A DNA stretch of 56,633 bases, counting the filler, from Dugesia japonica (Eukaryota), in NCBI GenBank assembly GCA_001938525.1. It is 5 parts of 5 records of this genome, joined end to end, with 100 filler letters (N's around TTAATTAATTAA, not from the genome) between each part and the next. Parts side by side here need not be neighbours in the genome. Positions count along the whole stretch, not along the records: positions 43,307 to 56,633 come from MQRL01580914.1; 4 more parts are not named here. One strand, 5' to 3'. Made by a program: the position numbers and the translations under genes. Position 1 is the first letter of the stretch, and the number at the start of each line of letters is the position of its first letter. Under the pieces are notes generated by a model, which was not told the DNA's origin, ran no database searches, and was given only the letters and a program-made list of their open reading frames with translations. Positions 2,231-56,454 of the stretch are shown here, one piece after another.

Positions 2231-2544
2231 GTTTTAAGTTATTTTTCCACATTTTTCTAATTTATTTTAAATTAAATGTAAATGTCAAGTTGCATACATA
2301 CACATGCAAGTGTATGTATGTATTTTTGTATGTATTATGATTATAATATTAGTCATATTAAAATGATATAAAATGTCAATAAAAAATATTGACACAAGAA
2401 AATTAAAAATTTAAATTGAAATAATTGATTTGAAGAAAAACTTGGCAACTATCAAAAGCTACCAAATAAAATAAATCAGAATTCAAAATTTAAAAATTAC
2501 TGCCAATAAAGCCTAGAAATTAAATTGCAGAGATAGAAAGACAA

Positions 2545-6089: not shown

Positions 6090-7350
6090 TATTCCGAAAC
6101 AGAAATCAATCATTGTTTCAATGGTTTTCTGAAAGTGTACCTCTTGTAATCGTGTAAAGGGTCATAGAGTTGAAGGACTACGGGAATAGTGTAGAGGGTC
6201 AATGGATTCAGATTAAAAACTGAGAAACTTGAGATTCGGTTTTTTAAGTATTATAAATTTAAATGTTAATGTATTAGAATGTACTTCAACACAATTATCC
6301 CAATTGTGGACGATGCCAGATGGGATAACATCACTTCATTTCATTTTCATCAAATCCGGGAGCGAGAAACACAGATTCAGAAACTTCACCAACAAAACCA
6401 AATGTTGTCGCAAGACTATGGCAAGCGCCTGTGCACGAGGGAGTAACGAGTACTTGGTATTATACAGGAAAATAAATTGTGGTTGACAAAGATCAAAGCA
6501 GGATACGAACAGCACTAAAAGCTATTACATCAAGCGCAACAACTCGCCGAAATTAGGAAGCAGCAACTGTTGTTACTAGGAGAGATTTTACAATTACTGA
6601 AACGGTGAAGAAACAGTTTACCCGTAATAGAGATATTATCTGGAACTCCATTAATGCTGAGTTCGGTCCACTCGAAACGCCGGGAGAATCTAATACGGAA
6701 TCAAAAAATACAGCCTTAGTAGACGCCATACGTCGATCGAAGGGACGAGCGAGATAGTTGATATGAGAGTTGAATAGAGTACAGCTTAAGAATTAATGGC
6801 TCATGATGCGAAATAAGCAAATCTGGGAGAAGGAGATGAACCTGCGAATGAGTTGGTAAATGCTCGCTGACTTGATGAAACTATACACAGACCGAGAAGC
6901 AGCTCTAATTGCTACAGTTGGAAGCATGAGTCGTAGCTGCCGAGAAGAGTCCGCGGAGAGTTCACCAGAGAAAGATTTTACGCCAAGACAGCGACGGTAG
7001 ACTCGAATGGGAAGGTTAAGAAATGAATCCATGTAAATGTTATAATTCAAAATATATGTAAAGGAGTAGTTCAGTTGTTTGTTGAGATAGACAGAAACAC
7101 TCAAAGATACATGCAGGAACGTCGAAACAGATGGTAAGAAAATTCATCTTTAATAACTAGAAAACAAATTTCATTACACTGCAGTAATGAATTTAAATAG
7201 ATTAATGAACCGGGATAATAAAATGCATGGTGTTTGAATTCGATCAAAATGGATTCAAGAATGGTGTAGTGTACTACAAACAGTTGCTCTACCGAGGAAA
7301 CGATTTCTCTTCCGAATAATTAGCTACTATCTCGGATACGTTCCCCGAGG
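6090..7350 (+). mobile_element. GC-elevated, degenerate coding-like island, possibly a retroelement (gag-like) relic
   Basis: Clearly higher GC than the flanks, with broken purine-rich frames (e.g. ETQIQKLHQQNQMLSQDYGKRL). No diagnostic motif recognised. Confidence 0.3.
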
Positions 7351-15929: not shown

Positions 15930-16490
15930 TAATGTGCCCATTGAACGTCTTGTTTTCATAAATTAAACCGGATTTAATCTCCATACATCACAAAGCTATG
16001 GATATTCACCAACGAATACATATGCATTCTCGACTGTTAAAGTAAATAAAGGAGTAAACCAGAGCTTAATGTGTGCAAGTGATTTATCTGCCTTTGTTGC
16101 TTTTGAAATTGTAAGTGGAGCATACGATGGTGAAAAGTTCAAGCAGTTCATCGAAACAAAATTTTTGATTATTTTAAAAGAAACAGGGGATCGATTCTAA
16201 TAATGGATAACTGCAGATTCCATCATGGGCTAGATGTGCTCGGGCTTCTTAGAGAAAATTTAATCCCGTTTAAGTTTATTCCTACATATTCTCGTCAGCT
16301 GAATCCTATTGAGGAATTTTTTGTAGTATTGAAAGCTAATTATAAAGCTATTCGGCCCCGGCCAGTTACAATAGGAGATGTGAGATTATCTGTGCAAAGT
16401 CTGATTAAAGCTGATGTTCCACTAAAACAATATTTTGAGAAAATGAGACGATTTATTTATCTTGGAATGGCGAGCCAACCATTTATCTAA
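15930..16490 (+). pseudogene. Tc1/IS630-like DD34E transposase, C-terminal part
   Basis: MDNCRFH...FIPTYSRQLNPIEEFF with exactly 34 residues between D and E. Upstream frameshifted AFEIVSGAYDGEKFKQFI. Confidence 0.85.
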
Positions 16491-18168: not shown

Positions 18169-19617
18169 CTATTTTTTCCCTTTTTTAGGAGAACTCTTTT
18201 TTGACGGAGGAGAACTTTTGCTTTTCTTTTTCTTATCAGGAGACTTTTTAACGTCTTGATTTTCTATTGGTTCAATTTGTTTAGGAGGTCTTGGCCAAAT
18301 TCCATCCATATCGTTAAGTGGCCATTGAACCAGATCAAATCCTTTAATAAATTTCAATGGTTCTGGCCGACGAGTTGGTGGAATTGGAGTCTGTTCCTTA
18401 TCAATAACGTGTTTTAACCATGCCATTTTATCCATATAAAACAAAGTGTCTCGATACCATCTGAACATAACTCTATCTATGTAAAATATTATATGATTTC
18501 TGTGATGATCGACTAAACAAATAATGCCATTTTTAGAAACGGAAAAATGACCCGGTCTGACAACTCGAAGTTCATCAACTTTCCAACCTCCAAAGCTACT
18601 TGTTTCCACACCTCCTTTATGAAATGCTCTTAAAAATCCCCATTGACTATCAGACACAGCGAGTACATTTAAACTATCTAGCCTCAAACAATATGGCTGT
18701 TTCATTCTTTCTAATCCAAACTCATAAATTGCACGAACAGTTATCCTATCAACAACTCTGTAACACATTTCTTTTATTATTTGAAAAACAAAGATTCTTG
18801 CGGGTCTAAGTGCGGCAACGTATAAAAATCCATTACCAGCTGCACAACCACCAGACGTTGCTAGGTGCACACAAAATGGTTCAGTCTTGGACCATCCTTG
18901 TAATCGAAAATCAACTGGAATTAATTTTCGGTAATGAAGTAATTCCATTCTTTGTATAGGATTTCTTATTATATAAATAGTATCATTATCAACTGTTACA
19001 CCTATTGGACGACCTTCGTCTATAAATGATTTTTGCTTTTCTTGATCTATTGACGGATCATCAGGATTATAATTTAATTCAAATTTATAATCACGTGTGT
19101 TTTCAATTTCCCCCTCTGGAGAAAATTGAGTCAGTGTTGTTTTTTTGACCGATGGACATCGAATCAAAGCCAAAATACGCCCAGTTTTTGGTGTTTCAAT
19201 AATTTGATATGGTTCACCTTTTGTTATGATATCAGGTAATTTTACTAAGTCATCAAAACATGGATCCAATTGATATCTCCAAATCTTTCGATTTTGAGGA
19301 TCTGAAACCCACAAATGACCCCATGAAGTAATAAGTGGACAAAATGGATTCCAAGAATATTCTCGATATATAAAATCTGGATTGTTAATATAAGGATACC
19401 ATGGTTGCCGTTTAACGTACATCATTCCCGGACCTTTCGGTGGTAGTGGAGGCGGGGTTTCTGGACGAGGTTCAGGCCAAAATGGTTCTTCAATTGCATC
19501 AGGAGAACCTCTTTTACCTTTTGGTGAATCCTTTTTACCTTTTGGAGAATCTTTCTTTTTCGGTGAATCTTTTTTTGATCCTTTTTTGCTGTCTGGAGAA
19601 CCCTTTTTAGATGGCAT
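18169..19617 (-). CDS. Intronless NHL-repeat-like beta-propeller protein with SPKK/Lys-rich N- and C-terminal tails
   Basis: Uninterrupted 482-aa ORF. Blade-like motifs: GHLWVSDPQNRKIWRY, GEPYQIIETPKTGRIL, GRPIGVTVDNDTIYI, GNGFLYVA, QPYCLRLDSLNVLAVSDSQWG, RPGHFSVSKNGIICLVDHHRNHIIFY. DSPKK/DSPKG repeats at the N-terminus and SSPKKGKK at the C-terminus. Confidence 0.85.
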   Translation of the reverse strand: MPSKKGSPDSKKGSKKDSPKKKDSPKGKKDSPKGKRGSPDAIEEPFWPEPRPETPPPLPPKGPGMMYVKRQPWYPYINNPDFIYREYSWNPFCPLITSWGHLWVSDPQNRKIWRYQLDPCFDDLVKLPDIITKGEPYQIIETPKTGRILALIRCPSVKKTTLTQFSPEGEIENTRDYKFELNYNPDDPSIDQEKQKSFIDEGRPIGVTVDNDTIYIIRNPIQRMELLHYRKLIPVDFRLQGWSKTEPFCVHLATSGGCAAGNGFLYVAALRPARIFVFQIIKEMCYRVVDRITVRAIYEFGLERMKQPYCLRLDSLNVLAVSDSQWGFLRAFHKGGVETSSFGGWKVDELRVVRPGHFSVSKNGIICLVDHHRNHIIFYIDRVMFRWYRDTLFYMDKMAWLKHVIDKEQTPIPPTRRPEPLKFIKGFDLVQWPLNDMDGIWPRPPKQIEPIENQDVKKSPDKKKKSKSSPPSKKSSPKKGKK

Positions 19618-21769: not shown

Positions 21770-22540
21770 TTAATACATTGAAGAAATTAATGAAGACTTT
21801 TCATTTCTCGGCACTGTTATTTTCACGATATTTTTCACACACATATTTTGCATTATTATGTAATGGTTTTTAATATCTTTTACTGCTTCGCGTAATTTAT
21901 AATAAAATACTTCATCATGCTCAATGATTCCTTGGATAAAATCTGACACATGTGAGAATTTCAATAATTTTGTAAATATTTTACCACGTTGATTGAAATA
22001 GTCGGTGAAAATATCCAAATCATTAACGAGTTGAGATTCGATTGAACTCAAACAGCTGATCACTTCTTCTTGAACTGAAACACCAAAATTATTCCCATCG
22101 GCAATTTCAGGAACCTTTAATTGAATCCATAACAATAACATTTTTACATCTTGGAGATTTTCAATCATTATCGGTTTTACAAGATTGAGAATGTCAATTA
22201 ATATTTTATTTGACTGCAGTTTTTCAACATCACTATAAGGAATTACTCGGCCGGGATTTTCAATAGAGCTTGAATCTTCGGAAGATGACAATTCAGTCTG
22301 CAAATTCTTTTTCTTATACTTTGATAAAGACTTTTTCAATGAATTTATTTGCTGTTTATTTTCCTTCTTTATTATGCCAATTACTTTTTCAGAATGAAAA
22401 TGTTCAGAACTGATAAGTTTGTTGATGACAACGATTTTCTGTGGGATTTTAACTTTTAATAGAGATTTACTTGAAGTGTGTAGATGTTTTTTAAAATCGA
22501 CCAATTCCGGAAATTGGTGAGATGATTTCTCGTTTGACAT
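21770..22540 (-). CDS. PSME3: Proteasome activator PA28/11S REG (gamma-like) subunit
   Basis: 256-aa intact ORF with activation-loop motif LWIQLKVPEIADGNNFGVSVQEE, YFNQRGK..TKLLKFSHVSDF, KNIVKITVPR, a C-terminal MY, and a basic insert (KKSLSKYKKK) like the REG-gamma NLS region. Confidence 0.93.
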   Translation of the reverse strand: MSNEKSSHQFPELVDFKKHLHTSSKSLLKVKIPQKIVVINKLISSEHFHSEKVIGIIKKENKQQINSLKKSLSKYKKKNLQTELSSSEDSSSIENPGRVIPYSDVEKLQSNKILIDILNLVKPIMIENLQDVKMLLLWIQLKVPEIADGNNFGVSVQEEVISCLSSIESQLVNDLDIFTDYFNQRGKIFTKLLKFSHVSDFIQGIIEHDEVFYYKLREAVKDIKNHYIIMQNMCVKNIVKITVPRNEKSSLISSMY

Positions 22541-33539: not shown

Positions 33540-34052
33540 AAAGCGCCATGGGGGTCACCGGTGACCGGCGAACCAAGATTATTAGAAAATCGTCGCTTGA
33601 CTCTAGCTTTTCCCCGTAATTTTATTAAGTTCATGACGTGGATTTCTCGGTAGGCTCGTAGGCGAAGAAAGGCAATCATCAGTGTCATTATCTTTGCATT
33701 TTGTTAAATACATGGCTATTTTCATTCGAAAATTAGGTATTTTGTTATTTCTGAAGAGTTACCTGTTTGAACATTACTAATGCGTTCACAATACAAGTAT
33801 TCAATAACAGCTCTATTGCTGACATTTTATACCATTTTACAGTGCTACGAAATGGTGAACTGTATGGTATCATTTGATCCGATAAATCAACTGAAGCCTT
33901 TTCTAAATTATATTCGACAACTACTTTTGGTTTATCACATAAATACCATTTTTTATTTACTGTCGTCATTTCCGTTGAATTTTGAGTAAAAAGCATAAGC
34001 ACATCCCTTTTATCCTTCCATTTAAAGACTATTATACCTTTTTCATTTTCTC
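33540..34052 (-). pseudogene. piggyBac transposase C-terminal region and 3' subterminal palindrome
   Basis: KWKDKRDVLML...KPKVVVEYNLEKASVDLSDQM..YS...KWYK...NA.VMF, then shifted IPNFRMKIA...RHEL...ARVKRRF; palindrome ggtcaccggtgacc at 33553-33566. Confidence 0.85.
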
Positions 34053-34275
34053 TACGGTTGAAGCAATTCCAGATGCAATTTCTTGCAGTTCCAGCTAACG
34101 CACCAATAATTGCTGGTATTGCAGCTAGAAATGCAAATCCTCCTTTATGTTTTTGTTTATTAACTTCTTTTACTTTTTTACTAATATAATAATTTTTACC
34201 ATCAATTTTTATAGATTTACATTTCTTTGAATTTATTATTTTTTCTAATTCTTCTTCCGTTGGATTGTTTGTCAT
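34053..34275 (-). pseudogene. Polinton/adintovirus core protein resembling adenovirus pX (mu precursor)
   Basis: Basic N-terminus, then KHKGG|FAFLAAIPAIIGALAGTA; a 1-nt shift restores IASGIASTV (cf. pX RGGFLPALIPIIAAAIGAIPGIAS). Starts 6 bp after a pPolB stop. Confidence 0.65.
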
Positions 34276-34280
34276 TTTCT

Positions 34281-34483
34281 TTAAGAAAAATATGCATATC
34301 CATGTGGCTGCGTTTTTATACCATTATCTTCAATAATTCCTTTATCATCATATCCCATTAATGCAATCTTTTTTTGTTTTACTATTTCAATTTCATGTTC
34401 ATGAGATACTAAAGAATTATTTATTCCATAAAATATTTTTTTAGGATTATTTAAAACCTCATCGAAATCTTTCATCAACAATT
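34281..34483 (-). pseudogene. Polinton pPolB extreme C-terminus (truncated by contig end)
   Basis: SLVSHEHEIEIVKQKKIALMGYDDKGIIEDNGIKTQPHGY (cf. S..H.I.T..Q.K.AL..YDDKR.I..DGI.T.P.GH). Confidence 0.8.
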
Positions 34484-35221: not shown

Positions 35222-35880
35222 TTAAAAAACTCCACGCACCTTCTTCTCAACATCTAGACCTTTCATTCTTTCCTCTGAAATATCAAGATAACCACGTACC
35301 TTTGACAATACTTGTTCTTGTTCCAATTTTACGTACGGAAATTTGCCATGAATATTTATCTTCCTTCCAAATATTATTTCCATCGGAGAAAATCTTGTTA
35401 ACTCTTGTATCGTTGAGTTAATGGAATATTCAATTTTCGGTATGATTTCGTCACAGCACAATCCTGTTCGCCCATAATTTTAAAAATTGTCAAACATATC
35501 TCGGACCGTCCTAATTGTTCGCTCTGCTAAGCCGTTCAATTTATGATTATATGATGAAGTAAAAATCCCCTCAATATTAAATTTATCAACCAAGCCCTTG
35601 ATCTGATTCACTTCAAAGACTTTACCTCTGTCTGATACAATCAATTTCGGTTTTCCAAATTTGTAAATCAATTGATGTAAGATAACACGGTGAATTGTAT
35701 TTTAATCTTATTTTTGGGTTGGTGTTAAACTAATCATCTTGCTTAATTGATCGATTATTATGGCCATATAACGATTACTGCTTCTGCTTTCCTTCATATG
35801 CTCAATATCTATCACGATTTGATCCATAGGGTTCATAACCTTTCTTGGTATTAAATATTCGGCTGTCTTTGATGTTAGTA
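35222..35880 (-). pseudogene. Gypsy integrase core (DD35E), frameshifted
   Basis: QIVIDI, IIDQLSK, FGKPKLIVSDRG...TSSYNHKLNGLAER (35 aa between D and E), NSTIQELTRFSPMEIIFGR. Confidence 0.9.
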
Positions 35881-36067
35881 TTTTCCTTGATTATTTACCC
35901 ATGGTTTGATTACTTGTTGTAAATTGTGTCTAATTGACCTTTTGATACCTGTTACTACTGCGTATGTCGGCCTATGCTATCTTTTGCTATCTTAAATGAC
36001 AATATCTTCTGACTTTTCTTCAATACTCATTGAAAATTTTAAAATTTATCGAATATTCCTCAATTTC

Positions 36068-36550
36068 CTACAAGGATTTATCTGGGTTCATTGCGATTGA
36101 CTCCTTTACTTTCCCGGAGCACATTTGATTTGAAATTATATCCTTCACGATTATGTCTTCTGTTTGCTTCCCCGACAAAACACTTCTTACCAACTTCCTC
36201 ACTCTAATTACAAAATTCTCATACCTTTCATTTGATCGTTGATAAACTTGGCTCAAATCATCGATCTTTTGCAAAAATGTTTTCGACTTGATGTACTTTG
36301 CACTATACCAATTTCTTGTATCTTCATCTGACGGAATCTTTATTCTTTCTTTAAAGGCTATCCATAATTCCTTCAAGTCATCGTGCAGCAATAAATCAAA
36401 TGCTGCAAATAAATTTAAAGAATTTATGGTTAACAAATCTTCAATTGGTTGCAGCCACTCTTTTGTTTCTTCCTTGTAGCCAAAAAACATTTTTATTATT
36501 GGATAAATTGATTCTTGAACCTTCTTTGGCAACGATTCTAAAATTTTCAT
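36068..36550 (-). pseudogene. Gypsy gag
   Basis: ORF just after the PBS containing QRSNERYENFVIRVRKL (Q...E....F..R major-homology-like motif). Confidence 0.75.
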
Positions 36551-36989
36551 CCGCTGCTGACTCTTTGTGAGAACTGTGATTTCGGCGTGTTCGCCAGTTA
36601 AAACACCATCTTGACACATTAAATAATAATACACTTTTCAAATATTTATTATAAAATATAAAATTATAAAACAATTTTTGAATTTCATTAAAATAGGAAA
36701 AAACTTCGATCAAAATAAAATTTATTTGAACTTTTTTACAAATAAATTTATTTTTATCGAAGCTTTTTCTTATTTTAATGAAATCTCAAATGCGATCAAT
36801 GGTTAAGTCCAACNNNNNNNNNNNNNNNNNNNNNNNNNNNNNNNNNNNNNNNNNNNNNNNNNNTTAATGAAATCTCAAATGCGATCAATGGTTAAGTCCA
36901 ACAATTATTCTCACAATAATTGTAATTATAAAAATTTCTGATTATTTAAACAACAATATTATTGTTACTGTCAGATATCAGCATTCAAA

Positions 36990-37659: not shown

Positions 37660-39049
37660 CCGTTTTTAATTTCGTAAAACAGTATTTGAAGAACATGGAT
37701 TGGAACCGCTAAGATTTGTTTTATTACCAGGATTGAACTGGTCAAGTGCTCTCACGTCGATGGATAGACAAAGATAATTACTTCAAGATGCTGAAATGCA
37801 TCGTCTATTTGAATTAGGAATTAGTGGAGGAATGACTTTTGTGAACAAACATTATGTAAAAGCAGATAAGAATACCTCACTGCTTTACACTGATATTATT
37901 AATCTATATGGTTGAGGCTTAGCACAACTTTTACTATATAGAGATTTTGAATTTATCTCAGAAGATCAGATTGAAGAAACATACCAAAAGATCTTCGCCA
38001 ATAACAATAACGTTATTGGATACCTGCTTAAAATTAATCTTGAAATACCGATCAAACATCATGTTAGATTAGATCAATTACCTTTGACTCCAGAACATAA
38101 ATATCCACCTGGATCAAAAGTTAAGAGGTTACTAGCGACACATGAACCAAAACAACATAATATCATATATTTAAGATTATTGGAATTGTATATAAAACTT
38201 AGAGCTCATATGACCGCGGTGCATAGAATAATCAAGTTCAAACAAACTAAAATATTTGCAAATTACATCAATGCAAATTCAACGAGAAGAGCAGAATCAA
38301 AGTCTAAATTAGAAAAAGACCTTTATAAATTATTAAACAATACGCTATGTGGTAAGACAGTTAAGAATTTGAAAAATTGCATGCATCTCAGGCTTTGTAA
38401 CAATGAAAGGAAATTCATAACTTACACTAGGACTAAAGGCTGTATTGCTAGAAAGATATATCAAATGTCTATATAGACCCATTTATATTGTTCAGGTGGT
38501 TCTAAATTTGAGTAAATTGTGAATTTATAGTTTCCAAAATAAAGAGTTGAAATATATCGTCAACAATTTCATTGGAAATTGATATTATTGCTGAAGATAT
38601 GGATAGCTTTTTCTAGTCATGTACCGGAGTAGATAGAAACCCACTCTTGTCTCAGATAAAATCAGATGGTCTCTTGGATACAAGCAATTACCCAAAGGAT
38701 CATTCACTCTAATCCTATAATGCGGCCAACATAATTGGATTGTTTAAAGATGAATGAGAAGGTGAAGATTATACTGAATGGTATTCCTTAGGCATATATT
38801 TTATAGTTTGAAGAAAGCAGATGCTAGTATGATAATGAAATAGAAAGGGATCAGTTTAAAATAAACAGGTTTTATGCATATAATAAAGATAAAGACGGAG
38901 AAGAAGAACCAAACAAGGTTATACAGACTAGCTTTCAATCAATAAATCATCAGGTTTATTCAATAGAGAGTATGAAACGCGTATTGTCTTGCCTGGATGA
39001 TAAACGCTTTTGGAGTGAAAGAAATATTAGTATGACATATAGTCATTAA
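37660..39049 (+). pseudogene. Polinton/Maverick pPolB polymerase domain
   Basis: FRKTVFEEHGLEP..FVLLPGLNWSSAL; LFELGISGGMTF; LLYTDIINLYG* (motif A); EKDLYKLLNNTLCGKT (motif B); IIAEDMDSF (decayed DTDS); LDTSNYPKDH; IGLFKDE; LSCLDDKRF. Confidence 0.92.
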
Positions 39050-39497
39050 ATAATTAATAATTAATTAATTTGATTACTGTTTGAATGACACAGTTTATCC
39101 AGGAAGAAGAAGAAGAAGACGATTATAATGTAAATGATGAAATAAATGGTGTTATATATATTTGTTTTCTATTGATTGGTTATGTATATGTGTTTCTTTG
39201 AATAAAAGTATAATGACTCTTTAAATTTATTTATAAAGATAATAATAAGACAATATGTATTTATGATGTTAAAATATTTAATAGGTAATATTTATTTCAT
39301 AAATATTAAAAAAATTAAATAATCATATAATAAGATTAATAATGATAATATATAATGGCATAGTAATTGTGTATTTTAATGCTAAATATCATGAGAGTGA
39401 TTACGTCATATGTCAAATGCCATGCTAATTATGTACGCATTGATTGTGTAATAGAGAAACATTCAAAAATGAGCCAGTGTACACGCATTCACCTATT

Positions 39498-43206: not shown

Positions 43207-43306
43207 NNNNNNNNNNNNNNNNNNNNNNNNNNNNNNNNNNNNNNNNNNNNTTAATTAATTAANNNNNNNNNNNNNNNNNNNNNNNNNNNNNNNNNNNNNN
43301 NNNNNN
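43207..43306. other. Artificial contig spacer
   Basis: 44 N + TTAATTAATTAA + 44 N. Confidence 0.95.
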
Positions 43307-43344
<38 letters not shown>

Positions 43345-43353
43345 ATTATTATT
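43307..43353. repeat. (TTA)n microsatellite
   Basis: Directly visible. Confidence 0.9.
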
Positions 43354-44099
43354 GTTGGGGTTTTACCCTAGGTGGGTTGATTTCTTCTATGATTAAATCT
43401 AGGGGTCTAACTATATATTATTATATTATATTATATTATATATTATATTAAGTTTAGGATAATTGACCTGGTAAATCCCCGCGATGAATTTGAATCTGGT
43501 GTCTCCAAAAAAATCCAGATCTTCGGAACGGAGCCGTTGACTCGGAATCCGAGTACAGACTCACATTCCTTTGGTTAGGGTTCATACTTCATGATACTCG
43601 CTTGATTCTCAAATCATACTTATCAACCATTTATTAGATTTCCGTTTATAACCTATTTTATTGGATTTTGATTTTATCAGTCAGTTAAGTCTTAATTAAT
43701 TATAAATTTTATTTTTTAGATTTAGCTGGGTTCAGTTTACTTTAACAATCCATACACTAAGGTTTAAAATTATCAAGAACGCAAGATTTTACCAAGTTAA
43801 AAAATATATTTGATTATCAGATTACCACGTGTTATACATTAATTTAACAAATAGGACGAACAATAAAACTAACGTGGTCTGGATCTCGATCCGGAGCAAG
43901 CACGAGATTTGACTTATCATTTCCTTGGTAGTTATTAATTATTCAATGGGTCCACCATAATTTTCCATATTCGGTTCAAGTCGGAAATCGTTGCATCCGT
44001 AATTGAATAACAAGAATATTTACTTTAAAAAATCTCCGTTCAATTACAGTATTTGCTTGATCAAAAGATAGAATGTTTTGGTGAAAATTACATCGGTAT

Positions 44100-44345
44100 T
44101 TATACCAGTTTCTCTTCACACCCCCATTCCTTTTATTGGTTATTTGGAATCATACCACTTTTCTGACGTTTCCATTGGCTTGAACGTCATGTGAGCTCTT
44201 TTTATTGCTTGATATTTTTGGACTTCGAATCTATTGGTCAACCTTCAAACTCCTGTATCTTTTTTCTGTATTTTTTTCTTGACCAAAATCTTTTTAATTG
44301 CTAATTTTTCCACCATGGGAAGTCGTTGTTTTTGCCATTTTTCAT
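44100..44345 (-). mobile_element. LTR-retroelement 3' end (polypurine tract and LTR start); related copy at 47440-47560
   Basis: Minus-strand AAAAGGAATGGGGG followed by TGTG. aaattagcaattaa...aagataca.gagtttgaag.ttgaccaat is shared with 47440-47560. Confidence 0.4.
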
Positions 44346-44739
44346 GAAATAATTTATTTTAAATTGTTCGATNTATTTTATTTAAATAAATAAATTATTT
44401 ATTTTACTTTCTTCCAAAATATTAATCTGCTGTTCATTTCTTTGTCTATCCTTCTCAGTAATTTTCAGAAATTAAGGATTTTATAAAAAAATATTTTAAC
44501 TAATTCATATTTGACTTATCAGTTTTTTACTAATACACATTTTAATTCTTATGAAACTTTCGATTTTTAACAAATGAACCTTTAAATTAATAATATTAAG
44601 TCTGTAGGAACTGATGCGTAGAAATTACACCGAAATCAAATTACGTGATTTACAAAATGTTTCGTCCAAGACGTCTAAGATACTACTTGATAATTACGAC
44701 CAAACGAATAACGAGCAAAATGGAAATACAGGATAAGAT

Positions 44740-45090
44740 ATACTGAGAGCTGTTACAGAAGAAAAACCTTAAATTAGAAAAGGAGAAAAAAGGCTGTATA
44801 ATTGTGATGTTAAATTCTCCAGCATGGAGACAGACAAAATAAACGTCACTTAGCTGAAACGCTTCAAATATTACAAAGAGTGGTTCTGGAGGAAAAACAT
44901 AAATGGACAAAACAGCCATAGTCTACATGCCTTCGCAAGCATCAATTAATAACTTTATTTTAATACATCTTAGTTTTTCAAATCGTGTCATATCTTATAG
45001 TGATAATACTGTTTCATATGTGACTTTCACTAATGAGATGTCGGCTAAAACTGATAAGTCAAAAGTTGTTTATTTTCGAGCTAACTTATT
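44740..45090 (+). pseudogene. Possible Penelope-like element fragment
   Basis: LKLEKEKKGCIIVMLNS (cf. I.KADKGN..VIL) and DKSKVVY (cf. KSNVVY at the GIY-YIG start); weak. Confidence 0.25.
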
Positions 45091-45799
45091 CTAGAATATC
45101 TATTAGGTCCGGATGCTGATAACTTAAATTCTAATTTTCTCTATTCTTTTGAGTTTTAAGGAATAAGAAAATCTGGCCGTANNNNNNNNNNNNNNNNNNN
45201 NNNNNNNNNNNNNNNNNNNNNNNNNNNNNNNNNCTGTATGGAATAGCTATAATAATACAAATAATTATACAAATATTTATAATTTTTATGAATGCATTTT
45301 CGGGTGTATAAATTTCTATAATTTGTATAACAAATAAGTTGGAATTAATTTTTCAAAATGAGAATCAATTTTATTGACTTTCAATTGTTTGTGTAAGGAA
45401 TGGATTTTTAATCGGTTTTGGAAAATTTATTTATTTTAACGTAAGAAAATTTTTATATTAAAATAACTTTAATTATTATGTAAATTTTGAGTAAAATTTT
45501 TCATTTACTTTATAAATATGATCAAAATTTATGTACTTTGTATATTTATTTTGTAAATTTTATTTATCTTTGGAAAATCTGCATGCCTCGAAAAATGTAT
45601 AAATAGAGCTGTAAAATACACTCCAGCACTATTTTTTAAACTCGTAAAAAAGTTTTTAACTTCTCCAGTTAAACAACTTAGAGTTAAAATAATAACGTGT
45701 ACAAATAATATTTTTATTTAATAAAATCTTTTTAAAGTAATAATTTTTCTATTTATTGTTTCTTAAGAACTATTATATGGCCTATCTATAAATATTATT

Positions 45800-45944
45800 C
45801 TATCTATAATAAACATATTAAGGTATAAAAGAAACATTTTAAAACGATAATATATTGGGATTATCATAGTTATTAAATTCAATTATTAAAACTCACGCAT
45901 TGTTGATTTACTTTGGTAATAATACACCAAAGTATCTCAACATA
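45800..45944 (+). repeat. Dispersed repeat, copy of 15310-15458
   Basis: Direct colinear similarity. Confidence 0.8.
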
Positions 45945-47254
45945 AGATTATAAGTCCATATCTTTATTACTAGTTTCATACTTGAGAAAAGCACCAAATT
46001 TAGGTTCTGTTTTATGTATTTAAGCAATTTTTATGTATTTATAGTCACCCATCTCTTCGAAAATTTATTTGAGAAACCGACCAAAATTTTCGTTAACCAA
46101 TGAAATAAAATCTGAGCTTTAACTTCAACATTCATAAGATACAAACAAAATATGAAAATATTATGCAGAAATTTTAAAGATTATTAGCAAAAGGTTCTGT
46201 GTGAGTCATTCCTGATTATATACATTGGTCCAAAAGTTAATGTTCAGACAAGTTTTCCGAAGTCTTTATCGAATATTTTTAATTAATTTGATTTCTTGAT
46301 GAGATTGTACAAATATTCATGTAAAATGAATTTTAATATATGAAATTTTATAAATTGATAAAAAGAAATATTATGCCTGAAAACAACAGTTAATCTGTCC
46401 AAATAAGTAGTAATAATAATTATATTAAAATGGCTCTTGAAATGAGGTATGTAACAGTTATAATTAGTTTTTGATTTTTAAAATTTAATTTAATTATTAA
46501 AAAATCGAAAATTATAAAAAAAAAGTTAGAACCTTTTTTAAATCTTATGAATTATATCATTAAGTTGACAAAATAACGATTTTAATTCAATTATTGTTTT
46601 GATTTTAACAATTATTTTTAAATAAATTTAACAATTATTTGAGAATTATTTTAAAAAATTTTCGAGATCTAATAATAATTATTTCTAAAAAAGTTTAAAA
46701 TTTAGGAAAGGTAATTATTAATTTCCTTATCCAAATTAGTATAATAAACGAACAGTTGTCATGGAAATTGTAAAAAATATAAAGCAATTACATTAATTAC
46801 TCAGTTTTGTTTAATTATATTTACGTAAATATATTGGTTTAATTATAATATTGACTATGAAATTTAAACTCTAACTCTTTAATGTCATATAAAGTTAAAT
46901 TTATTTTTTAATTGTAAGACAACTCTAAACATTTTTGTCTTATAAACACAAATTTAAGAGTTCGATATTGATTTACACTTCAACGTATATTTTACATTAA
47001 TTCGTTTCATCTGTTATAAAACAATTATGTATCCTTTGTATTTTAAAAAATTTAAATTATTGATCAAAATCAATGAAATNNNNNNNNNNNNNNNNNNNNN
47101 NNNNNNNNNATGACTATAACTTCTTTTACAACGGACCAGTTCAATGTTTTTGTTAAAGTGAATGATCTCCGGTTGACGAAAATATATTTTAAAAAGAATA
47201 AAATATAAAATTAAATATTTAGTATTTTCCGTTTTTAAATATGAATTTTTATAT

Positions 47255-47360
47255 TTGTTTGTTTAAACAATTAATGATGTTATAGTTTTTATTTTAATCA
47301 ATTTATGGAGTTGAATTCTGATATTAATGATTCGATGAGTTTTCCAAACTCTCCTAACAT
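47255..47360. repeat. Dispersed repeat; inverted copy at 55843-55950
   Basis: atggagtt.aattctgat.ttaatgattcg..gagttttccaaactc.cctaaca occurs in both. Confidence 0.8.
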
Positions 47361-47574
47361 GTGAATTAAAATGATTTATTTTAAAGAAGAAAATAAAATT
47401 TTTTACAAAAATTAGAAAAATGAAGGTTTCCTATCAAAATAAAATTAGCAATTAAGAAAATTATAGATAAGAAAAAATCGGAGATTTCGAAAATCCAAAT
47501 TAAAAAATCAAAGCAAGACTAAGAAAGAAGATACAAGAGTTTGAAGATTGACCAATGGATCTGCAATAATTTTG

Positions 47575-47805
47575 GAATTAAATGTTCATCTATAGTAATA
47601 TTGTTGGTGATTCAAAATTTTCTTTGTTGAAATCAGTATGGCTGGAGAGTTATGAAGTTGATCAATTATTTCAAGTTATAGTCAAGAATTCAATGTATCT
47701 ACAAATCACTACTTCATGTATAAACAATAAAGAAATCAACATACGTGACGATAACGGGGATTTAATTCTTTGGATAACAAACTGAATATTTAGATTTAAA
47801 TGATA
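47575..47805 (+). pseudogene. Polinton minor capsid (penton) protein C-terminus
   Basis: MFIYSNIVGDSKFSLLKSV...MYLQITTSCINNKEINIRDDNGDLI (cf. YVY.DIV...VGD....LL..V...Y.P.....I..I.I.IRD..G). Confidence 0.8.
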
Positions 47806-47829
47806 CTCTTGTATGTTCAAAAGTCTGAT

Positions 47830-48615
47830 GAAGTACCAGGTAATTTCATATTGCATAGTCTATTCAATGATATAAATNTTCAATTAAATAATATTAAAGC
47901 ATTAATTGAGACTATTTTGAATTATAATAGAAATACAAAGTATGTATATCTTAATGCAGTGGGTTATGGAAATGATGATTTTAGACAAAGAATTATTAAA
48001 TCATCAAAACCATGGTCTCTATTTAGTCCTCTACAACTAGATTTCATGGATCAACCAAAATATCTTATTCCAAGTGTCAATGCTCACATTCGATTGAAAA
48101 GAGCAAATCCTAGAATGTGTTTGGAATTTTAAAACTAATGAATCAAAATATAAATTATTGGATGCATAATTAATGATTAGAAGAGTTCAAGTGGGTTCGT
48201 CAATACTAACAGCTCATTAAATTGGATTAACCAAACAAAATGCTATTTATCCTAAAAAATCCAAGGAAATTGTATCGTATGCAATTAGTAACGACAGTTC
48301 ATTGTTTAATAAGGAAAAATCTTTGGAGATTGTAAATTGCCAAGCTTTATTCTGGTAGCATTTCAAGATGAAAAACGATATAAAGGAAAACAAAAATATG
48401 AATTATGAAATAACCCTTATATTTTAAAACCAAATATTCATTTTTCACCTATTTCTTGCTCCAGACTTTGATATAAACCAAAGTCAGTTACCAATGCAAA
48501 NAAATCTAAAGTTAGATATAAAATTTGAAACTCCTTTGTTGGCTTCAGCACATGTAATAATTTATGAAGTATTTGAAAATGAAATTCAAATTACTGCCAA
48601 GAGAAAAATATTGCT
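47830..48615 (+). pseudogene. Polinton double-jelly-roll major capsid protein (deleted, frameshifted)
   Basis: NFILHSLFNDI..QLN; KALIETILNY; LQLDFMDQPKYLIPSV..HIRLKR; LMIRRVQV..SILTAH..GL.KQNAIYP; KLPSFILVAF; LAPD; NLKLDIKFETPL...VIIYEVFENEIQITAKR. Confidence 0.9.
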
Positions 48616-48789
48616 TTTAACAATCAATTTTGGTTTAAACAATCTCAATATCACGAAATTTTAAGTAAATGAAGTTTATTATTCAAATAATTTATTTATT
48701 TAATTATTTCAATTCANATAGACAAAATTGGAAAACAATGGTTAGGATCAGATTGCTTAGGAGTATTTCCAATAGACAAGATTCCAAAC

Positions 48790-49030
48790 TTTTAAGTAAT
48801 GTAGCACTAATCATCAATACTCAGAGCTCAAACCTCGGCGGTGAACACTGGTTAGCTGTTTATCATAAGCCTGAACATATACTAGTATTTGATCAATTGG
48901 GATTTTATTATTCATCACTTCTAGTCTCGCAACTATCGAGTTTATGAAAACCTATTATTTATAATCGAACAAAATATCAACAATGGTTAGCTATAAATTA
49001 CGGTGAACATTGCCTATTGTTGTTAAGAAA
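48790..49030 (+). pseudogene. Adenain-like (adenoviral-type) cysteine protease of a Polinton
   Basis: LIINTQSSNLGGEHWLAVY...VFDQLG (catalytic H, D), then YNRTKYQQ...NYGEHCLL (Q present; the catalytic C of CG.HC appears mutated to Y). Confidence 0.88.
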
Positions 49031-49409
49031 ACCACATGGCAGATGAAATTTCGTGTTGAATAAATTTATTGAATAAAAAATTGTTACTTGCTTAGTGACT
49101 AACTGTATTATTTTTATTAATTTAAATTGAAAATATATTAACACAAAGAATAATAAAGAACAGTAATAACAACCATAATAATAAATTAAAAATTTATTTA
49201 ATACAACTCTTCATAGTGTTTAATTTATATAAGAGTCTGTTTCAATCATTTAATTTTGTCAACACTATAGTACGAACAATTTTGAGCTATATAAAAAGGT
49301 AATGATAAAATAATAATTGCAAAAAATATAAAAACAAACAATAACAACACAATTATAAATAAAAATTTATTATATATAATTTTTTCTTTAGGTGTTTAAT
49401 TTTTTTCAA

Positions 49410-49545
49410 CTAATTCGGTTTTCAGACCATTCCTCTTCATCGTCTGTATTGAAAGGCCATGTTTCATTATTATTCTAAAAAGAAAATTTAAAAATTTAAC
49501 TATAATGAAATTAAAAACTTACCATTTTTCTTTTATTAGTTTCTA
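49410..49545 (-). other. Short spliced exon pair convergent on the Polinton protease
   Basis: ETNKRKM | 48-bp gtaag...ttttag intron (49475-49522) | NNNETWPFNTDDEEEWSENRIS*. Confidence 0.35.
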
Positions 49546-51934
49546 AATTATAGAAATTTTTATGGATTGCTAACAGATGATTTTAAAAAAATTTAATTAT
49601 CTATTTTATTAAATAAAATATACAAATTAAAAATAAGTTGACAAAAATGTTAATAGAACTTTATATTAAATTTTTTAAAGAAAATGATTTTGTTTAATCA
49701 TTTCAACGAATTTTAAATATATGCTCAATTAAGTAATAATTTGACATATCAACAGCGAACACGTTTAATTTCATTATAATTTCAGTTTTAAAAAAAATCA
49801 TTGACCAACAATTTTTCTAATTTTAAATATATTTTCTAAATGAAAAGAAAATTCCAACCAGTAATTTTAATTTTTAATTAAATTTTTATTTAATTATAAT
49901 GTTAATTTAATTATATGTTAACATCAAACAATGTTTCAAATATGAATAATACATCAGAGTTTGTACACCGGAATTATGAATCCAATATGACAAATATGAA
50001 TTATGACAATTATGAATTATTTTATGACATTAAATTATAATAAAGGTTAAATTTGTTAGATTTTTTAAACATGATAGTGTTATTTAACTTAAATTTTTTT
50101 GAAAGTAATTTTAAGTAGTCCATCATTTGTAATTTATTTTGAAAATTAAATTATTTTTCAGCAATATTTTATTTGAGAAATTTTAATTTTCATATGTAGA
50201 ATCTATTAAATTTTTAAATTATTTTCAAAATTGGCAACTCTCTATTACCCACTATATTCGCCAGACGTTGTTCCAATGGACTATCGTGTCTTCCAGGTAT
50301 TAGATAACTTCTTATAAGAAAATTTATTCAAATTTGAAGAGTCTATGAAAAGTGTCTTTCGTGACTTTATTGCCACTCTATCACCAGATTTTTTCGCTGT
50401 TCAAATAAACAAGTTTTCATTAAGGTGGTAGGACTGTGTTGATAGTTTCCGTGCATATTTCGATGAAATGTACTGTGGTTTGCTTGTTAAATAATAATCC
50501 AATATTTATCAAAAATCCAAAATACTTAATGAACTATAAAATAATTAAACTTTTCTTCGTTGAATTTAATATTAAAAAATTTTAAATCATTTTATGGATA
50601 TTTTTCTTTTTCAGTTAGATTTTTCNTATTGTAATCTTATTAAAACAGGAATTAAAGTATAATACTGAAAAGACGTAATTTTAAAATAAGATGTTTGATA
50701 TATTTAATCCATCTGGTTGCGGAAAAATTTTGAAAATACTTTTAATTTATTTAATCCAATTTTAAAGCAAAATTCTTCTCTGAAAATAATATTACTAATA
50801 TTTTTCATTCCACTGAAATTTGTTGAATTAACTTTTTTAGCACAAAAATAATTATGGAATTGTTTTAATGAAAATATTTTGAATTTTATTTATATATTTA
50901 TATTTATTTGTATATATTTTTTGTTTATTTATATATGTGTATATTTTGTAGGATGTTCATAAAAAAGCTTTCTACAATGATAACATGAAAATCGTAGCAA
51001 ATCTCAAATTGGAAGCATTTTGACTTAATTATATTTACTACAAAATATATTGAAAAACGTATACTCGTGGTTATATTGTTATTTGTCAAAATTAAACAAT
51101 AAAAAATGATTATATTAAATAAATCTTGATTTATTTTAGATTGGAATAAAAATTTTAATCTGAAATTTTAAATGACAATTAAGAATAAAACAAAAAAACA
51201 AAATAAAGAAATTAATCATTAAAAGGAATAAGAAATTCTAAAAACATAAAAGATGAAAATCAGAACAATAAAACAGATAAATAGCAGGAAAATAAGATAA
51301 CCCGGAAAATAGAAAACTAAGATTAAAAATATCAAATAAAACGACTATACCATAACCAAAATGAAGTAACAAAAGTTTATCTAACGATAACAGCAAAAGA
51401 AGGAAAACTGGAAATTAATGAAAAATGAATAAATTGAAAGATTCAACAAAAATAAATATATAACTTGAAAGTAGTGGGTAAATAGTGCAGCACTGGACCA
51501 TCGTAATGGCAGTCAAAAAGGTATACCCCTCCCCCTCTCCCCATGAACACTGTCCTTTAAGATTCAACGAAAACAAATAAAATTAAATAAAAGAAAATTA
51601 AATAATGACTACAGAAAAAAAAATTACAAGTGAATTTTGAGAAAGTCCAAAAGATGTAGTGCAAATTATAATACCTCAGAAACGAGAAGTAAAGTCGCAA
51701 AAGAACAACTTGTTTTACTACGGCTATTTTATGAAATGGCGTTTTCCACCAATTTCTCTATGGAAGTGATTGCAGAAAATTTTGGTGAGATAAAAATACC
51801 GATTAAATGTATCAAATAAGCTATAATTCAATTAAAATCAATAAAAATTATCAGTTGATCAATAAAATATGGAGCTTGAAAAACGATTTTGAAGAACCCC
51901 AGCCAGATTCTGAAAATAAAAAAACTGAGGCAAG

Positions 51935-52130
51935 TAAAAGCGAGCCAGTATCAGATGACATTAAAAGTTATCTTAGAAAACTACAGGAATTAAGTCTTCA
52001 TTTTAACTGTGAGGTGCAGTCAATATGCATAGAGGGCACAGGCGAACATGAAATAAGTATAACTATTTCGTATCAAACTATAAGTATGAAATTTTGTAAA
52101 AGTAGGTAGAGGCGCATTGGAGCAAAGAAC
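51935..52130 (+). repeat. Dispersed repeat; direct copy at 53436-53620
   Basis: aaaagcga.ccagtatcagatg.catt..aagttatcttagaaaactaca...tagagggcaca.gcgaa.atgaaataag. Confidence 0.85.
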
Positions 52131-53049
52131 CTTTTGGATCTCCTACCCACTGTCAAAGTTTTCTAGAAATTTGGTGTTCTACAAATCTTGTCTTTGTTCA
52201 ACTCAACTTTGATTTGTCGACACATTTTTGTGAAAAATTTCAATAATATTGTATCCTATAATCTGTATGGTTAATATCAATAGAAAAATATTTTGTTTCA
52301 AGTTTTTTTCAATTATTTAATTTTTAAAATTTTATTTTATGTTATGATATGGTATATTTAAATGAGCAATAAAAGATGAGCAATGTTATATAAGTAAAGT
52401 TTCTGTCGGTCAAATGGTTAAAAGTTATTAAAGATTGAAAATTTTAAAAACTACATACAACCATCAATTTTAAATGTAATTTATTTTCATTTGATAGAAA
52501 ATTAAAAACTGTCTAAACATTGACTAAAAGACTATTATCGAAAATTGCTTCTTTAATACTACACTGGACCACCTTCTCCAAGTAATAGCATTCGAAAAAA
52601 TCGATACTATAGGACAAAATTTTTAAAAAAAGATAATGATGTCTCATTCACTTGTATCGTCAAATGTTTTCTTCTCTTTAAAAGTTTTAATTTTTAAAAA
52701 TGAGTAAAAGTCAAGTTACTAAAGTGCTATGATAACCATTTTGATATCATTGGATGCACAATAAGATGATGATTATTATGCTCTGCTTATGTTTACAATA
52801 AAAATATAAAGATAAATGTTATTTGAACTTTAAAATTTCAAAACGGCCAACCAAAATTTCTGAATTTAAAACTTATACCATGTGATAGAAAACTAAGACT
52901 TATCTACACATTCTATAAAAAAAACAACTGTCGGAAAGTGCTTAATTTCTGTGAAATTTCGAAAACAGAGAATAGAGACCCACATAAGTCACTAAAATAA
53001 ATGTGTTATGAAAACAGATTTAATATATTCTGATGCAAAATTTGTCAAA

Positions 53050-53260
53050 AATTATTTTTAAATGAGTTTCGCCATAAAACAAATGCAAGGTAAATAGTAG
53101 TTAGACATATAAACGAAGTGTTTGACAAGAATCCTGTCGATGAATTAATGGTACAGCAATGGTTTCAGAAATTCTGTTCTGGAGATTTCAGNCTAGAAAA
53201 TAATCCACATGAGCGAAGTTAAATAGTGATGATCTAAAAGATTAAGTGTAAAAGAACATT
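53050..53260 (+). pseudogene. Mariner transposase N-terminal HTH fragment
   Basis: FLNEFRHKTNA...RHINEVFDKNPVDELMVQQWFQKFCSGDFXLENNPHER (cf. INEVFG...V....V..WF.KFRSGDFSLE.EPR.GRP). Confidence 0.85.
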
Positions 53261-54329
53261 AAGGCAAACCATTTCTTCAACATATCGTGACATGTGATGA
53301 TAAAAATAAAGCACCAAAACAGAGTTCAAAGCCGAACATTCGCCAAAGGTAGCTAATCGTATATGTGTAGTGGACAAAACACTGATATTATCGATTACAA
53401 CTTTTTGAAACTTGGTCAAGAACTGGGAAGCAAATAAAAGCGAACCAGTATCAGATGCCATTAAGTTATCTTAGAAAACTACATGAAGTAGGACTTCGTC
53501 GGGGTTTAACTGTGTGGCGCAGACATTATGTGTAGAGGGCACACGCGAAAATGAAATAAGCATTAATACTGGTTCAAATTTCGTAAAGGTAAGTAATGGC
53601 GAACTGGAACATAGAACCTTTTACACAAATCAAATCACATTTTATGTGGGCTCATCAGAGTTGATTGTATTCCCCATATACATTATAAAACTGAGTTCAT
53701 CCAGCTCACCTATTATCTCTAAATAATAATATTGTANNNNNNNNNNNNNNNNNNNNNNNNNNNNNNNNCAATATTATACGGAGGTCTGAAAGACAATCAA
53801 AGACCTTCTGAGTGACCTAGCAGAATAGTGAATGCTACCTGCAAAATTAAATTTAAAATTGCTTCGTGTTGAATGAACAGGATACGACTAATCTAATAAC
53901 TTTTCAAAATTCGAAACCATTTTTAAGACAATTAACAACAGAATCAATTTAACTTCAGTAGATAAACTAAGTTACACTTTTATTACTTCTCTTGAATCCA
54001 TGGTCAGATTCTCTTCTTTGAGAAAATTCATTCAGATAAAAATCCTCAAAATCTGTCAAATTTCATTCAACAACCATTTCTTGACTGAAATAAATCTGTT
54101 CCATTTACACATTTTGTCTTACTTCCTTAATTAATTTTGTCATACCTGTAAACAATTAAAAATTGGTCATTTTTTTAAAACTATATGTAAATTCAATCCT
54201 AAAAAAGCGGCAAAATAATATATCAGTATGAAATTACTCCATATATTCTCAGAATTCTCTCTCTTTTTGCAGATACCCAATCCTATCTAAACTTAAACAA
54301 TATTCTGGAAGATTATTTTGAAATTAACT

Positions 54330-54900: not shown

Positions 54901-56454
54901 ATTTATAGTTCCTTAAATTAGCCTCACCTCAAAATCTTGTTTGATGAAAAAATTTATGTCTTTGCTAAAGTATTACAAAAGCAANNNNNNNNNNNNNNNN
55001 NNNNNNNNNNNNNNNNNNNNNNNNNNNNNNNNNNNNNNNNNNNNNNNNNNNNNNNNNNNNNNNNNNNNNNNNNNNNNNNNNNNNNNTTTAAATAATATAA
55101 CGAACCAATTAATCTCACTAATACTAATATCATATTACAATATTAAACATGGTGGTTTGATAAAACCTTCTGAGGCGTGGTCTAACTCAAATCAGAGATT
55201 AATAATTAACAAAGATTTTAATCTTCATGAAAATGAATAGTATGAAGATATTGAATATTTAGATGAGTGTTGGCCAAATTGTGTTCAGTGAGAACCAAGG
55301 ATTCGGCAGAAAGAATTTGGAAATATTCAAAATTGCTAAGGTTTTTTAAACATTCTACTAATAATACAATAAATTAATTATTAATAAATAACTAAATTCA
55401 ATTCTTCTATTTATTTTATACTACGCATTATGAGATTATTGATTATCATTCTGGAATAAAACAAATATATGTTATACATTCTATGACGTTTGGTAGCTCA
55501 TACCTTTGCAAACAGAGTTTTTAGTATTAACAGACATGAAGTCGAAGAAACGAGAGACTTTAAACCGCCAATAAAGATATGTTTTAAATTGTCTACCAAC
55601 GAGCGTCGAAGAAGTTTGATCTGTGATCACTAGCAAGCTCCGGTTCACAAGTAAATGAATAGGTACGTACCAGAACAGTTGATAACTTTTTTTACATAGA
55701 AGTATCACAAAATTTGTAGAAATTGTATAGACGTCACTAAATATTTTATAGAATTGCATGGAAGTCGATAAAGTTTTCAAAATCCTATATAAAACAATGG
55801 GAAAATAATTAAAAAAAACTGCATAGAAGTCGTTAAATATTTTGTTAGGTGAGTTTGGAAAACTCCGCGAATCATTAACATCAGAATTAAACTCCATAAA
55901 TTTATTAAAATAAAATCTATATCCATCATTATTCGTTTAAACAAACAAATTAAAACTTAATGCTTTAATCGGAAATTATTTTCCAAAAATTTAAAAATCT
56001 AGATTTAAAACTTAATTTAAATTCATTTGATAATTTTACAAAAAATAATTATTTTTTAATAACACATCTTTTGAAAATTTTCATAAACTTTTAAAACAAA
56101 AATAAATGATCATACGTATTAAAATAAAATTTAAAAATTTTTAAACAAAAAAAACTGATTATTTGTTAAAAAAAATTTCATAAAATTTCAAAACTAAAAA
56201 TGATCATTTGTAATAACAATTTGTAATAATCTTTTAAAATTTTCACAAAAACTTTCATAANATTTTCAAAACAAAATCACTTGCTATTAAATTATCATTT
56301 TAAAATCTTCTGAACTTTCAAAACAAAATTGAAATTTCCAAAAATTTTAATTAATTTCTTAATTAATTTGTGATTTTGAATTTTTTTAAAAAAATATTTA
56401 TTTAAAACACAATTTCCAACGAGAGCACAAAAAATTTTAATTCGCTTCTGAACT

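Follow-up and report, generated by a model that had tools for sequence, protein, structure and literature searches.

The window analysed here (the whole stretch of DNA, 56,633 nucleotides long) contains, at positions 47552-49031 on the + strand, the remnants of three genes in the order penton (its C-terminal quarter), major capsid protein (MCP; most of the gene) and a short adenain-type protease. The order and the strand are those found in intact relatives, as established by comparing profiles of the relatives' open reading frame (ORF) families with the window; exactly three of these families (the ~340-aa penton, the MCP and the short gene that follows the MCP) matched the region. The locus represents, in a decayed state, the genes for virion morphogenesis of an element of the Maverick/Polinton type, and comprises the following features:

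47407..47560, strand not assigned: repeat at the left boundary that recurs in inverted orientation at 44229-44342 (pairs I1, 71 nt, 70%, and I2, 39 nt, 90%)
47552..47770, + strand: C-terminal quarter of the penton gene (minor capsid protein, PX); profile positions 249-327 of 344, E 1.6e-17, and alignment
47760..48664, + strand: MCP pseudogene (PY, double jelly-roll); tblastn E 1e-67, and segment map
48669..48708, + strand: start codon and short AT-rich stretch, at the site of the relatives' micro-exon and 37-47-nt predicted intron
48706..49031, + strand: pseudogene of the short adenain (PRO); profile E 1.8e-7 and 4e-25, and alignments

The relic is about 1.5 kb long (1480 nt, vs 2883-3096 nt in six relatives hand-picked for having all three genes) and is broken by in-frame stops, seven frame changes and, in the MCP, four deletions; it has also lost the small gene that separates penton and MCP in relatives, and its protease is without the catalytic Cys. 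An earlier note on this DNA had placed the three pieces on one strand, in this order and at nearly these coordinates, which the profile searches bore out (E 1.6e-17 for the penton, 6e-32 to 5e-16 for the MCP and 4e-25 for the protease), and had assigned them to the virion module of Polintons/Mavericks, in agreement with tblastn (E up to 1e-67) and with the folds and the gene set of the relatives. Its description of three consecutive same-strand frames is correct as to strand and order, but the segment map resolves about ten segments distributed across the reading frames, with six frame changes in the MCP and one in the protease. As for the reconstructed proteins, the profiles of the relatives matched all three pieces, while Pfam returned for the window pieces only a sub-threshold match to Peptidase_C5 (E 0.0064), and neither the capsid pieces nor 8 intact MCPs matched any Pfam family; no Rfam match was found in the window.

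We regard it as very likely that the penton, MCP and maturation-protease genes of a Maverick/Polinton-type element survive here as a dead remnant with internal deletions, likely an old germ-line insertion in an AT-rich animal, likely a flatworm. Judging by its reading frames, it would yield neither a capsid nor an active protease.

The penton remnant and its junction with the MCP

Of the penton gene, the first three quarters at the 5' side and ~17 codons at the very end are missing, and the remnant exhibits in-frame stops at 47567 and 47579. By eye, its motifs are similar to the PX rows of the Ciona, sea urchin, Xenopus and turtle Polintons, as given in supplementary file 3 of PMC4028283. The place of the missing 5' part is occupied by the repeat at 47407-47560. 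On the opposite side, a single deletion fuses the penton piece to residue 43-47 of the MCP, and thereby removes the end of the penton, the start of the MCP and the intervening gene. This gene, of ~100-116 aa, lies between penton and MCP in all 18 of the 18 loci that possess a penton-family ORF and in 25 of the 27 loci overall, and a profile search revealed no match to it in the window. Hence the adjacency of penton and MCP, on which the earlier note had remarked, preserves the original order of the two genes but not their natural neighbourhood.

The MCP remnant

The homology to MCPs begins near residue 43-47 and stops at 48616, and the last reading frame closes at 48664. The remnant contains six frame changes and stops at 47775, 48167 and 48218. 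Compared with the intact MCP P0008, four segments are missing: residues ~1-42, ~14 residues beyond position 60, 11 around position 100, and ~50 in the neighbourhood of 280-330; the decay reported earlier is thus confirmed, but the earlier note had seen two of these four gaps, namely the N-terminal one and one in the middle. Profile matches cover 47815-48613 in four main blocks (E 6e-32 to 5e-16), and the 8 closest MCPs, compared with the window by tblastn, gave E 1e-44 to 1e-67 over 47754-48616. These 8 relatives, 406-409 aa in length and 47-55% identical, were found among 23 candidates with the longest open stretch (47800-48132, 110 codons).

In a quick tree of 62 rows, in which the window row fills 24% of the columns, the unbroken MCP stretch falls into a 9-member clade with P0007-P0014 (SH-aLRT 100). 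In the same quick tree the end branch of the window MCP has a length of 0.62 vs 0.09-0.28 for the 8 intact members of the clade.

The protease remnant

The protease remnant contains one frame change and one stop (48945). An adenain motif with His, Asp, Gln and, less certainly, Cys had been claimed for it; alignment with the relatives, in which these columns are invariant in 10 of 10 sequences, demonstrates that His, Asp and Gln are retained and that the catalytic Cys column is lost. A search of PDB sequences with the window protease frame yielded only matches of E~0.9. The ATG at 48669 is the only one in the 84 nt tested and lies four bases past the last MCP stop, and from there the sequence remains open for 92 codons (48669-48947), the ORF beginning in a frame that does not match the relatives. 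No canonical splice pair was found in the AT-rich stretch at the window protease start (the strict intron test was false).

The two open stretches, of 110 codons in the MCP and 92 codons in the protease, could be taken to mean that part of the module, e.g. the MCP stretch, has been domesticated by the host. We assign this explanation a vanishing probability: the open MCP stretch contains the 11-residue deletion and spans only a quarter of the fold, the MCP branch is the longest in its clade, and the protease ORF combines a mismatched starting frame with the absence of the catalytic Cys.

Intact relatives in metagenomes

With an alignment of the 8 MCPs, 27 related loci have been identified in JGI metagenome contigs (163 pattern matches, of which 27 were confirmed), and none in IMG/VR (133 pattern matches, 0 confirmed). 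A search with the MCP alignment among 50% representatives retrieved 6379 proteins at E<=0.001. The gene set of the relatives comprises an A32 ATPase, an rve integrase with a chromodomain, the penton, a small basic gene, the MCP, the protease and a polymerase in opposite orientation; the ATPase, rve and the Endonuclease_7-bearing polymerase are present in the two longest loci. Among 52 ORFs scanned against Pfam, rve exceeded the cut-off in L003, L004, L008 and L022 (with a chromodomain in three of them) and Pox_A32 in L003, L008 and L022. The relatives are compact: the longest contigs, whose ends do not reach those of the element, measure 12.9 and 14.2 kb, the MCP has ~406 aa and the protease ~110 aa. 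No terminal repeat pair was found in L003, L004, L008 and L012, contigs that may stop short of the element ends.

Several further genes have been noted in these loci. A TATA-binding-protein (TBP) gene lies upstream of the ATPase in L003 (2175-2618) and L008 (2420-2866; PF00352, E 2e-17 and 5e-18), and was assigned by clustering in L014 (177-726); TBP is also labelled in the legend of figure 5, on MELD viruses, in PMC8502044. Tandem pairs of penton-family ORFs occur in 5 of the 18 penton-bearing loci (L008:5616-7684, L009, L011, L024 and L027). Genes for a ubiquitin-conjugating enzyme, a RING finger protein and a glycosyltransferase-4 are located near the left ends of relatives (L008:225-719, L014:1710-2168 and L004:2-511), as possible cargo or host flank.

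The folds were predicted for the proteins of the relatives (P0008 for the MCP, L004 for the penton family) and not for the window pieces. The P0008 model, built from 117 sequences (pLDDT 95.9), matches the double jelly-roll MCPs of SGIV (an iridovirus), PBCV-1, Sputnik and mavirus with E 6e-16 to 5e-13. In a viral library the best match of the MCP is a protein of Cotesia sesamiae bracovirus (E 1.4e-26, 25%), followed by adomavirus LO7 and virophage MCPs; a Polinton is listed in Cotesia sesamiae bracovirus in Table S1 of PMC4028283. The model of the L004 penton-family protein, built from 14 sequences (pLDDT 85.8, pTM 0.53), was superimposed on a PBCV-1 chain (Z 14.6, rmsd 2.9, 138 aligned), the mavirus penton (Z 13.4, rmsd 6.4, 229 aligned), a Sputnik chain (Z 13.0, rmsd 6.3, 233 aligned) and an aviadenovirus chain (Z 10.6, rmsd 4.5, 237 aligned), with Z 4-6 for unrelated rows, and Foldseek associated it with adomavirus LO5 and with the minor capsid proteins of mavirus and virophages. 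By their predicted folds, the relatives thus carry a double jelly-roll MCP with a single jelly-roll penton nearby. Their protease is recognized as Peptidase_C5 in 9 of 10 sequences at E<=0.1 (best 7.5e-6) and weakly matches ASFV pS273R (E 7e-4) and adenain (0.013) in the PDB; it is considerably shorter than adenain (~110 vs 204 aa).

A predicted intron at the start of the protease gene

In 12 of the 14 loci with a protease match (L002, L003, L004, L006, L008, L009, L012, L013, L016, L017, L019 and L021), the protease gene begins, just past the MCP stop, with an ATG and two bases, followed by a GT...AG stretch of 37-47 nt whose removal restores the frame, and contains no in-frame ATG. The reverse applies to L010 and L020, which possess an in-frame ATG and no GT...AG stretch. 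After merging three pairs of 99%-identical loci the predicted intron is counted in 9 of 11, vs an expectation of 0.02 from base shuffles. From these sequences, the ~110-aa protease gene of the relatives seems to be spliced via a ~40-nt intron directly after the start codon. This intron is not described in the part of the literature covered by our search, Repbase reports and most subscription papers being outside its scope. Introns as such are not unique among Maverick-like elements, because introner insertions have been reported in those of dinoflagellates (PMC11957031). A protease gene that is short and, by prediction, spliced raises the prospect that "protease absent" in Polinton catalogues may be in some cases an annotation miss.

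Element ends, integrase, ATPase and polymerase

Neither element ends nor an integrase or ATPase gene are linked to the relic. Terminal inverted repeats (TIRs) and a target-site duplication (TSD) were not found: of the 249 inverted pairs in 43300-53700, none of the 25 longest encloses the relic, and a self-blastn of the window showed no such pair either. The pair 44229-44342/47407-47560 was considered as the TIR of the element and rejected, as both of its arms are upstream of the module. No profile match to the ATPase was found anywhere in the window, and matches to the integrase profile occur only at 35273-35779 (-), 12 kb away, beside a retrotransposon gag.

A polymerase fragment is located at 37667-39058 (+), 8.5 kb upstream of the relic, on the same strand and across N gaps. 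In the relatives the polymerase is downstream of the module and on the opposite strand, and because side and strand differ from this layout, the fragment, which had been considered as part of the same insertion, is provisionally treated as a separate piece. The polymerase fragment of the window matches PF03175 (E 3.8e-8), the PolB type of Alpha adintoviruses; the polymerases of the relatives do not at E<=0.01, as would fit the divergent PolB of the Beta class defined in PMC8502044. In L003 and L008 the large ORFs of opposite orientation, without a PF03175 match of their own, are 43-44% identical to the PF03175-matching fragment.

Decayed Polinton polymerase fragments have been found altogether at 1896-2238 (+), 7121-7258 (+) and 37667-39058 (+), the longest being 43-53% identical to the polymerases of the relatives. 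Reverse frames at 34281-34480 (-) weakly match polymerase C-termini (E 0.03) and are not counted as evidence. Polinton debris is dense in this genome.

The relic is derived from the Maverick/Polinton family and fails as a complete element; since linkage to an integrase and an ATPase is absent, we classify it as a family-derived relic and not as an element.

The host genome

The earlier note had suggested that the host might be a highly reduced parasitic invertebrate. A highly reduced genome does not fit, because the window is gene-poor and rich in repeats and transposons; its only host gene with named homologs has them in trematodes and cestodes alone. In a Pfam scan of 116 ORF translations (14 plus 102, the latter drawn from 129 ORFs of >=56 aa, of which the others were covered by other scans or are alternative frames of known genes; spliced genes with short exons would escape this procedure), PA28 was the only host family above the cut-off; the other matches above the cut-off or with E<0.001 are to transposon or Polinton domains, and there is one weak match to GABP-alpha (E 0.0067). 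The host gene in question (18172-19617, -) is a single ORF of 482 aa whose two ends carry lysine-rich SPK repeats and whose core is likely an NHL beta-propeller. A word-indexed search returned 4 matches among 1628 candidates, the named ones being from Trichobilharzia and Spirometra, and further cestode members have been found, the named homologs being 38-40% identical in these searches; in a protein atlas only bacterial NHL beta-propeller clusters, without taxonomic value, were retrieved. The protein is 30-43% identical to its trematode and cestode homologs, which share 50-58% with each other, and these identities point to a flatworm outside trematodes and cestodes or to a fast-evolving one. 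In view of the low GC content, and judging from this one gene, a planarian is likely.

The remaining content of the window is as follows. A divergent PA28 proteasome activator gene forms a single ORF at 21773-22540 (-) (PF02252, E 3e-40), with two database matches, the best at 56%. In a single frame at 33748-34323 (-), a basic stretch that contains a GGF motif is fused to a piece of a piggyBac-type transposase (PF13843, E 6e-9); the basic stretch is similar to the small core-type ORFs of the relatives only to the eye, with no profile match. Pieces of a Tc1/mariner-type DDE_3 transposase are present at 15967-16487 (+), and pieces of a retrotransposon gag and integrase at 35273-36637 (-). Dispersed unclassified repeats include the pairs 51927-52135/53427-53622 (74%), 45783-45943/15293-15455 (87%) and 47211-47359/55843-55994 (83%).

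Ten sequencing runs from five studies contain the stretch or part of it, and all bear one organism label; no RNA run was among those listed, and rows X8-X10, with small shares, are left out of consideration. Four of the runs, which belong to three studies, each contain 51-56% of the 233 words sampled, figures to be read with the facts that the query included host repeats and that one run may be the source sample itself. These data lend moderate support to the view that the relic resides in the genome of the labelled organism.

It could be argued that the stretch belongs to a free virus or to another organism sequenced along with the animal (its food, its parasite or its host), given that an N gap (47080-47109) parts the relic from the upstream host genes, that the relatives come from metagenomes with unknown host, and that mislabelled adintovirus contigs have been reported (PMC8502044, section 3.3). 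Yet repeats in the flank of the relic recur elsewhere in the window (47211-47359 with 55843-55994, and 47407-47560 with 44229-44342), the GC content of the relic (27.6%) is close to that of the whole window (26.1%), the runs share a single organism label, and so many breaks would not be expected in a free virus; a foreign origin therefore appears to us extremely improbable.

The same runs bear on the question of whether the deletions and frame changes are partly an assembly artefact, created by short-read collapse of several more intact copies into a mosaic. The window carries 31 N runs, several of them inside or beside the relic, and even the best runs contain only about half of the sampled words, as a mosaic would have it. 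But runs of three studies share that half as exact 31-mers, the pieces are colinear with one reference and evenly diverged along their length, and the long end branch, the stops within aligned blocks and the missing catalytic Cys have the appearance of drift and not of collapse, which renders a mosaic highly improbable.

Proposed history of the relic

The ancestor of the relic was probably virion-capable, because intact relatives carry an MCP, a penton, an A32-type ATPase and a protease in which no catalytic column is missing. Based on the relatives and on established knowledge of Polintons, it would have inserted through its rve integrase and replicated with a protein-primed polymerase, and its A32 ATPase would likely have packaged the genome into an icosahedral shell of MCP and penton, matured by the protease. 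The copy described here has since lost its ends and, of the ~3-kb module, about half; it would then have drifted free of selection. As no TIR, TSD, integrase or ATPase is linked to the relic, its integration by its own machinery is something we infer from the relatives only.

Comparison with known elements

The gene set of the relatives agrees with that of Polintons as described in PMC4028283 and PMC8502044 (section 3.1). Polintons/Mavericks with capsid genes ('polintoviruses', class Polintoviricetes; PMC4028283, PMC11071308) have a double jelly-roll MCP, a penton and an adenovirus-like protease clustered as in the relic. They differ from the relic, which is without ends, integrase, ATPase and a clearly linked polymerase; of these, the A32 ATPase, rve and polymerase are supplied by the relatives. 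Adintoviruses, according to PMC8502044, are animal elements with adenain, hexon, penton, FtsK-type ATPase, rve integrase and PolB, a gene set like that of the relatives, and the same source describes degraded endogenous adintoviruses as widespread in animal germ lines, with a copy on human chromosome 7 as an example. The name of a flatworm is absent from the text of PMC8502044 and from one of its supplements.

In Table S1 of PMC4028283, 72 Polintons are compiled, and the capsid genes of many of them are fragmented. Among them are four from the planarian Schmidtea mediterranea (Polinton1_SM, Polinton-1_SM, Polinton2_SM and Polinton-2_SM; 11.6-15.9 kb), of which all four are marked as having the penton and the ATPase and three as having the MCP, while two are scored as lacking the protease. 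Maverick expansions in Dugesia genomes are reported in bioRxiv 10.64898/2025.12.11.693146. These Schmidtea and Dugesia elements are likely from the same host group as the relic, the comparison with the Schmidtea ones being one of tabulated gene content. Because MCP-positive Polintons of Schmidtea and the Maverick expansions of Dugesia are known, a capsid-bearing Polinton in such a host is no surprise.

Conclusions

The relic is ordinary, in that similar remnants are common and have been described before. Taken alone, it is of little consequence: decayed capsid modules are known across animals (PMC8502044), and capsid-bearing Polintons of a planarian are listed in PMC4028283 (Table S1). Its use is a modest one, namely to tie a tight clade of Mavericks from metagenomes to a host. 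Tentatively, and with more doubt than confidence, we propose that the relic reveals an animal, likely a flatworm, as host of an undescribed compact Maverick clade, which was otherwise encountered here in metagenomes only and is characterized by a ~406-aa MCP, a TBP gene in some members, and a ~110-aa adenain that requires the removal of a ~40-nt spliceosomal intron. If this is true, the maturation of the virion would be under the control of host splicing and the protease gene would be hidden from ORF callers, which could explain why planarian Polintons have been scored as protease-negative.
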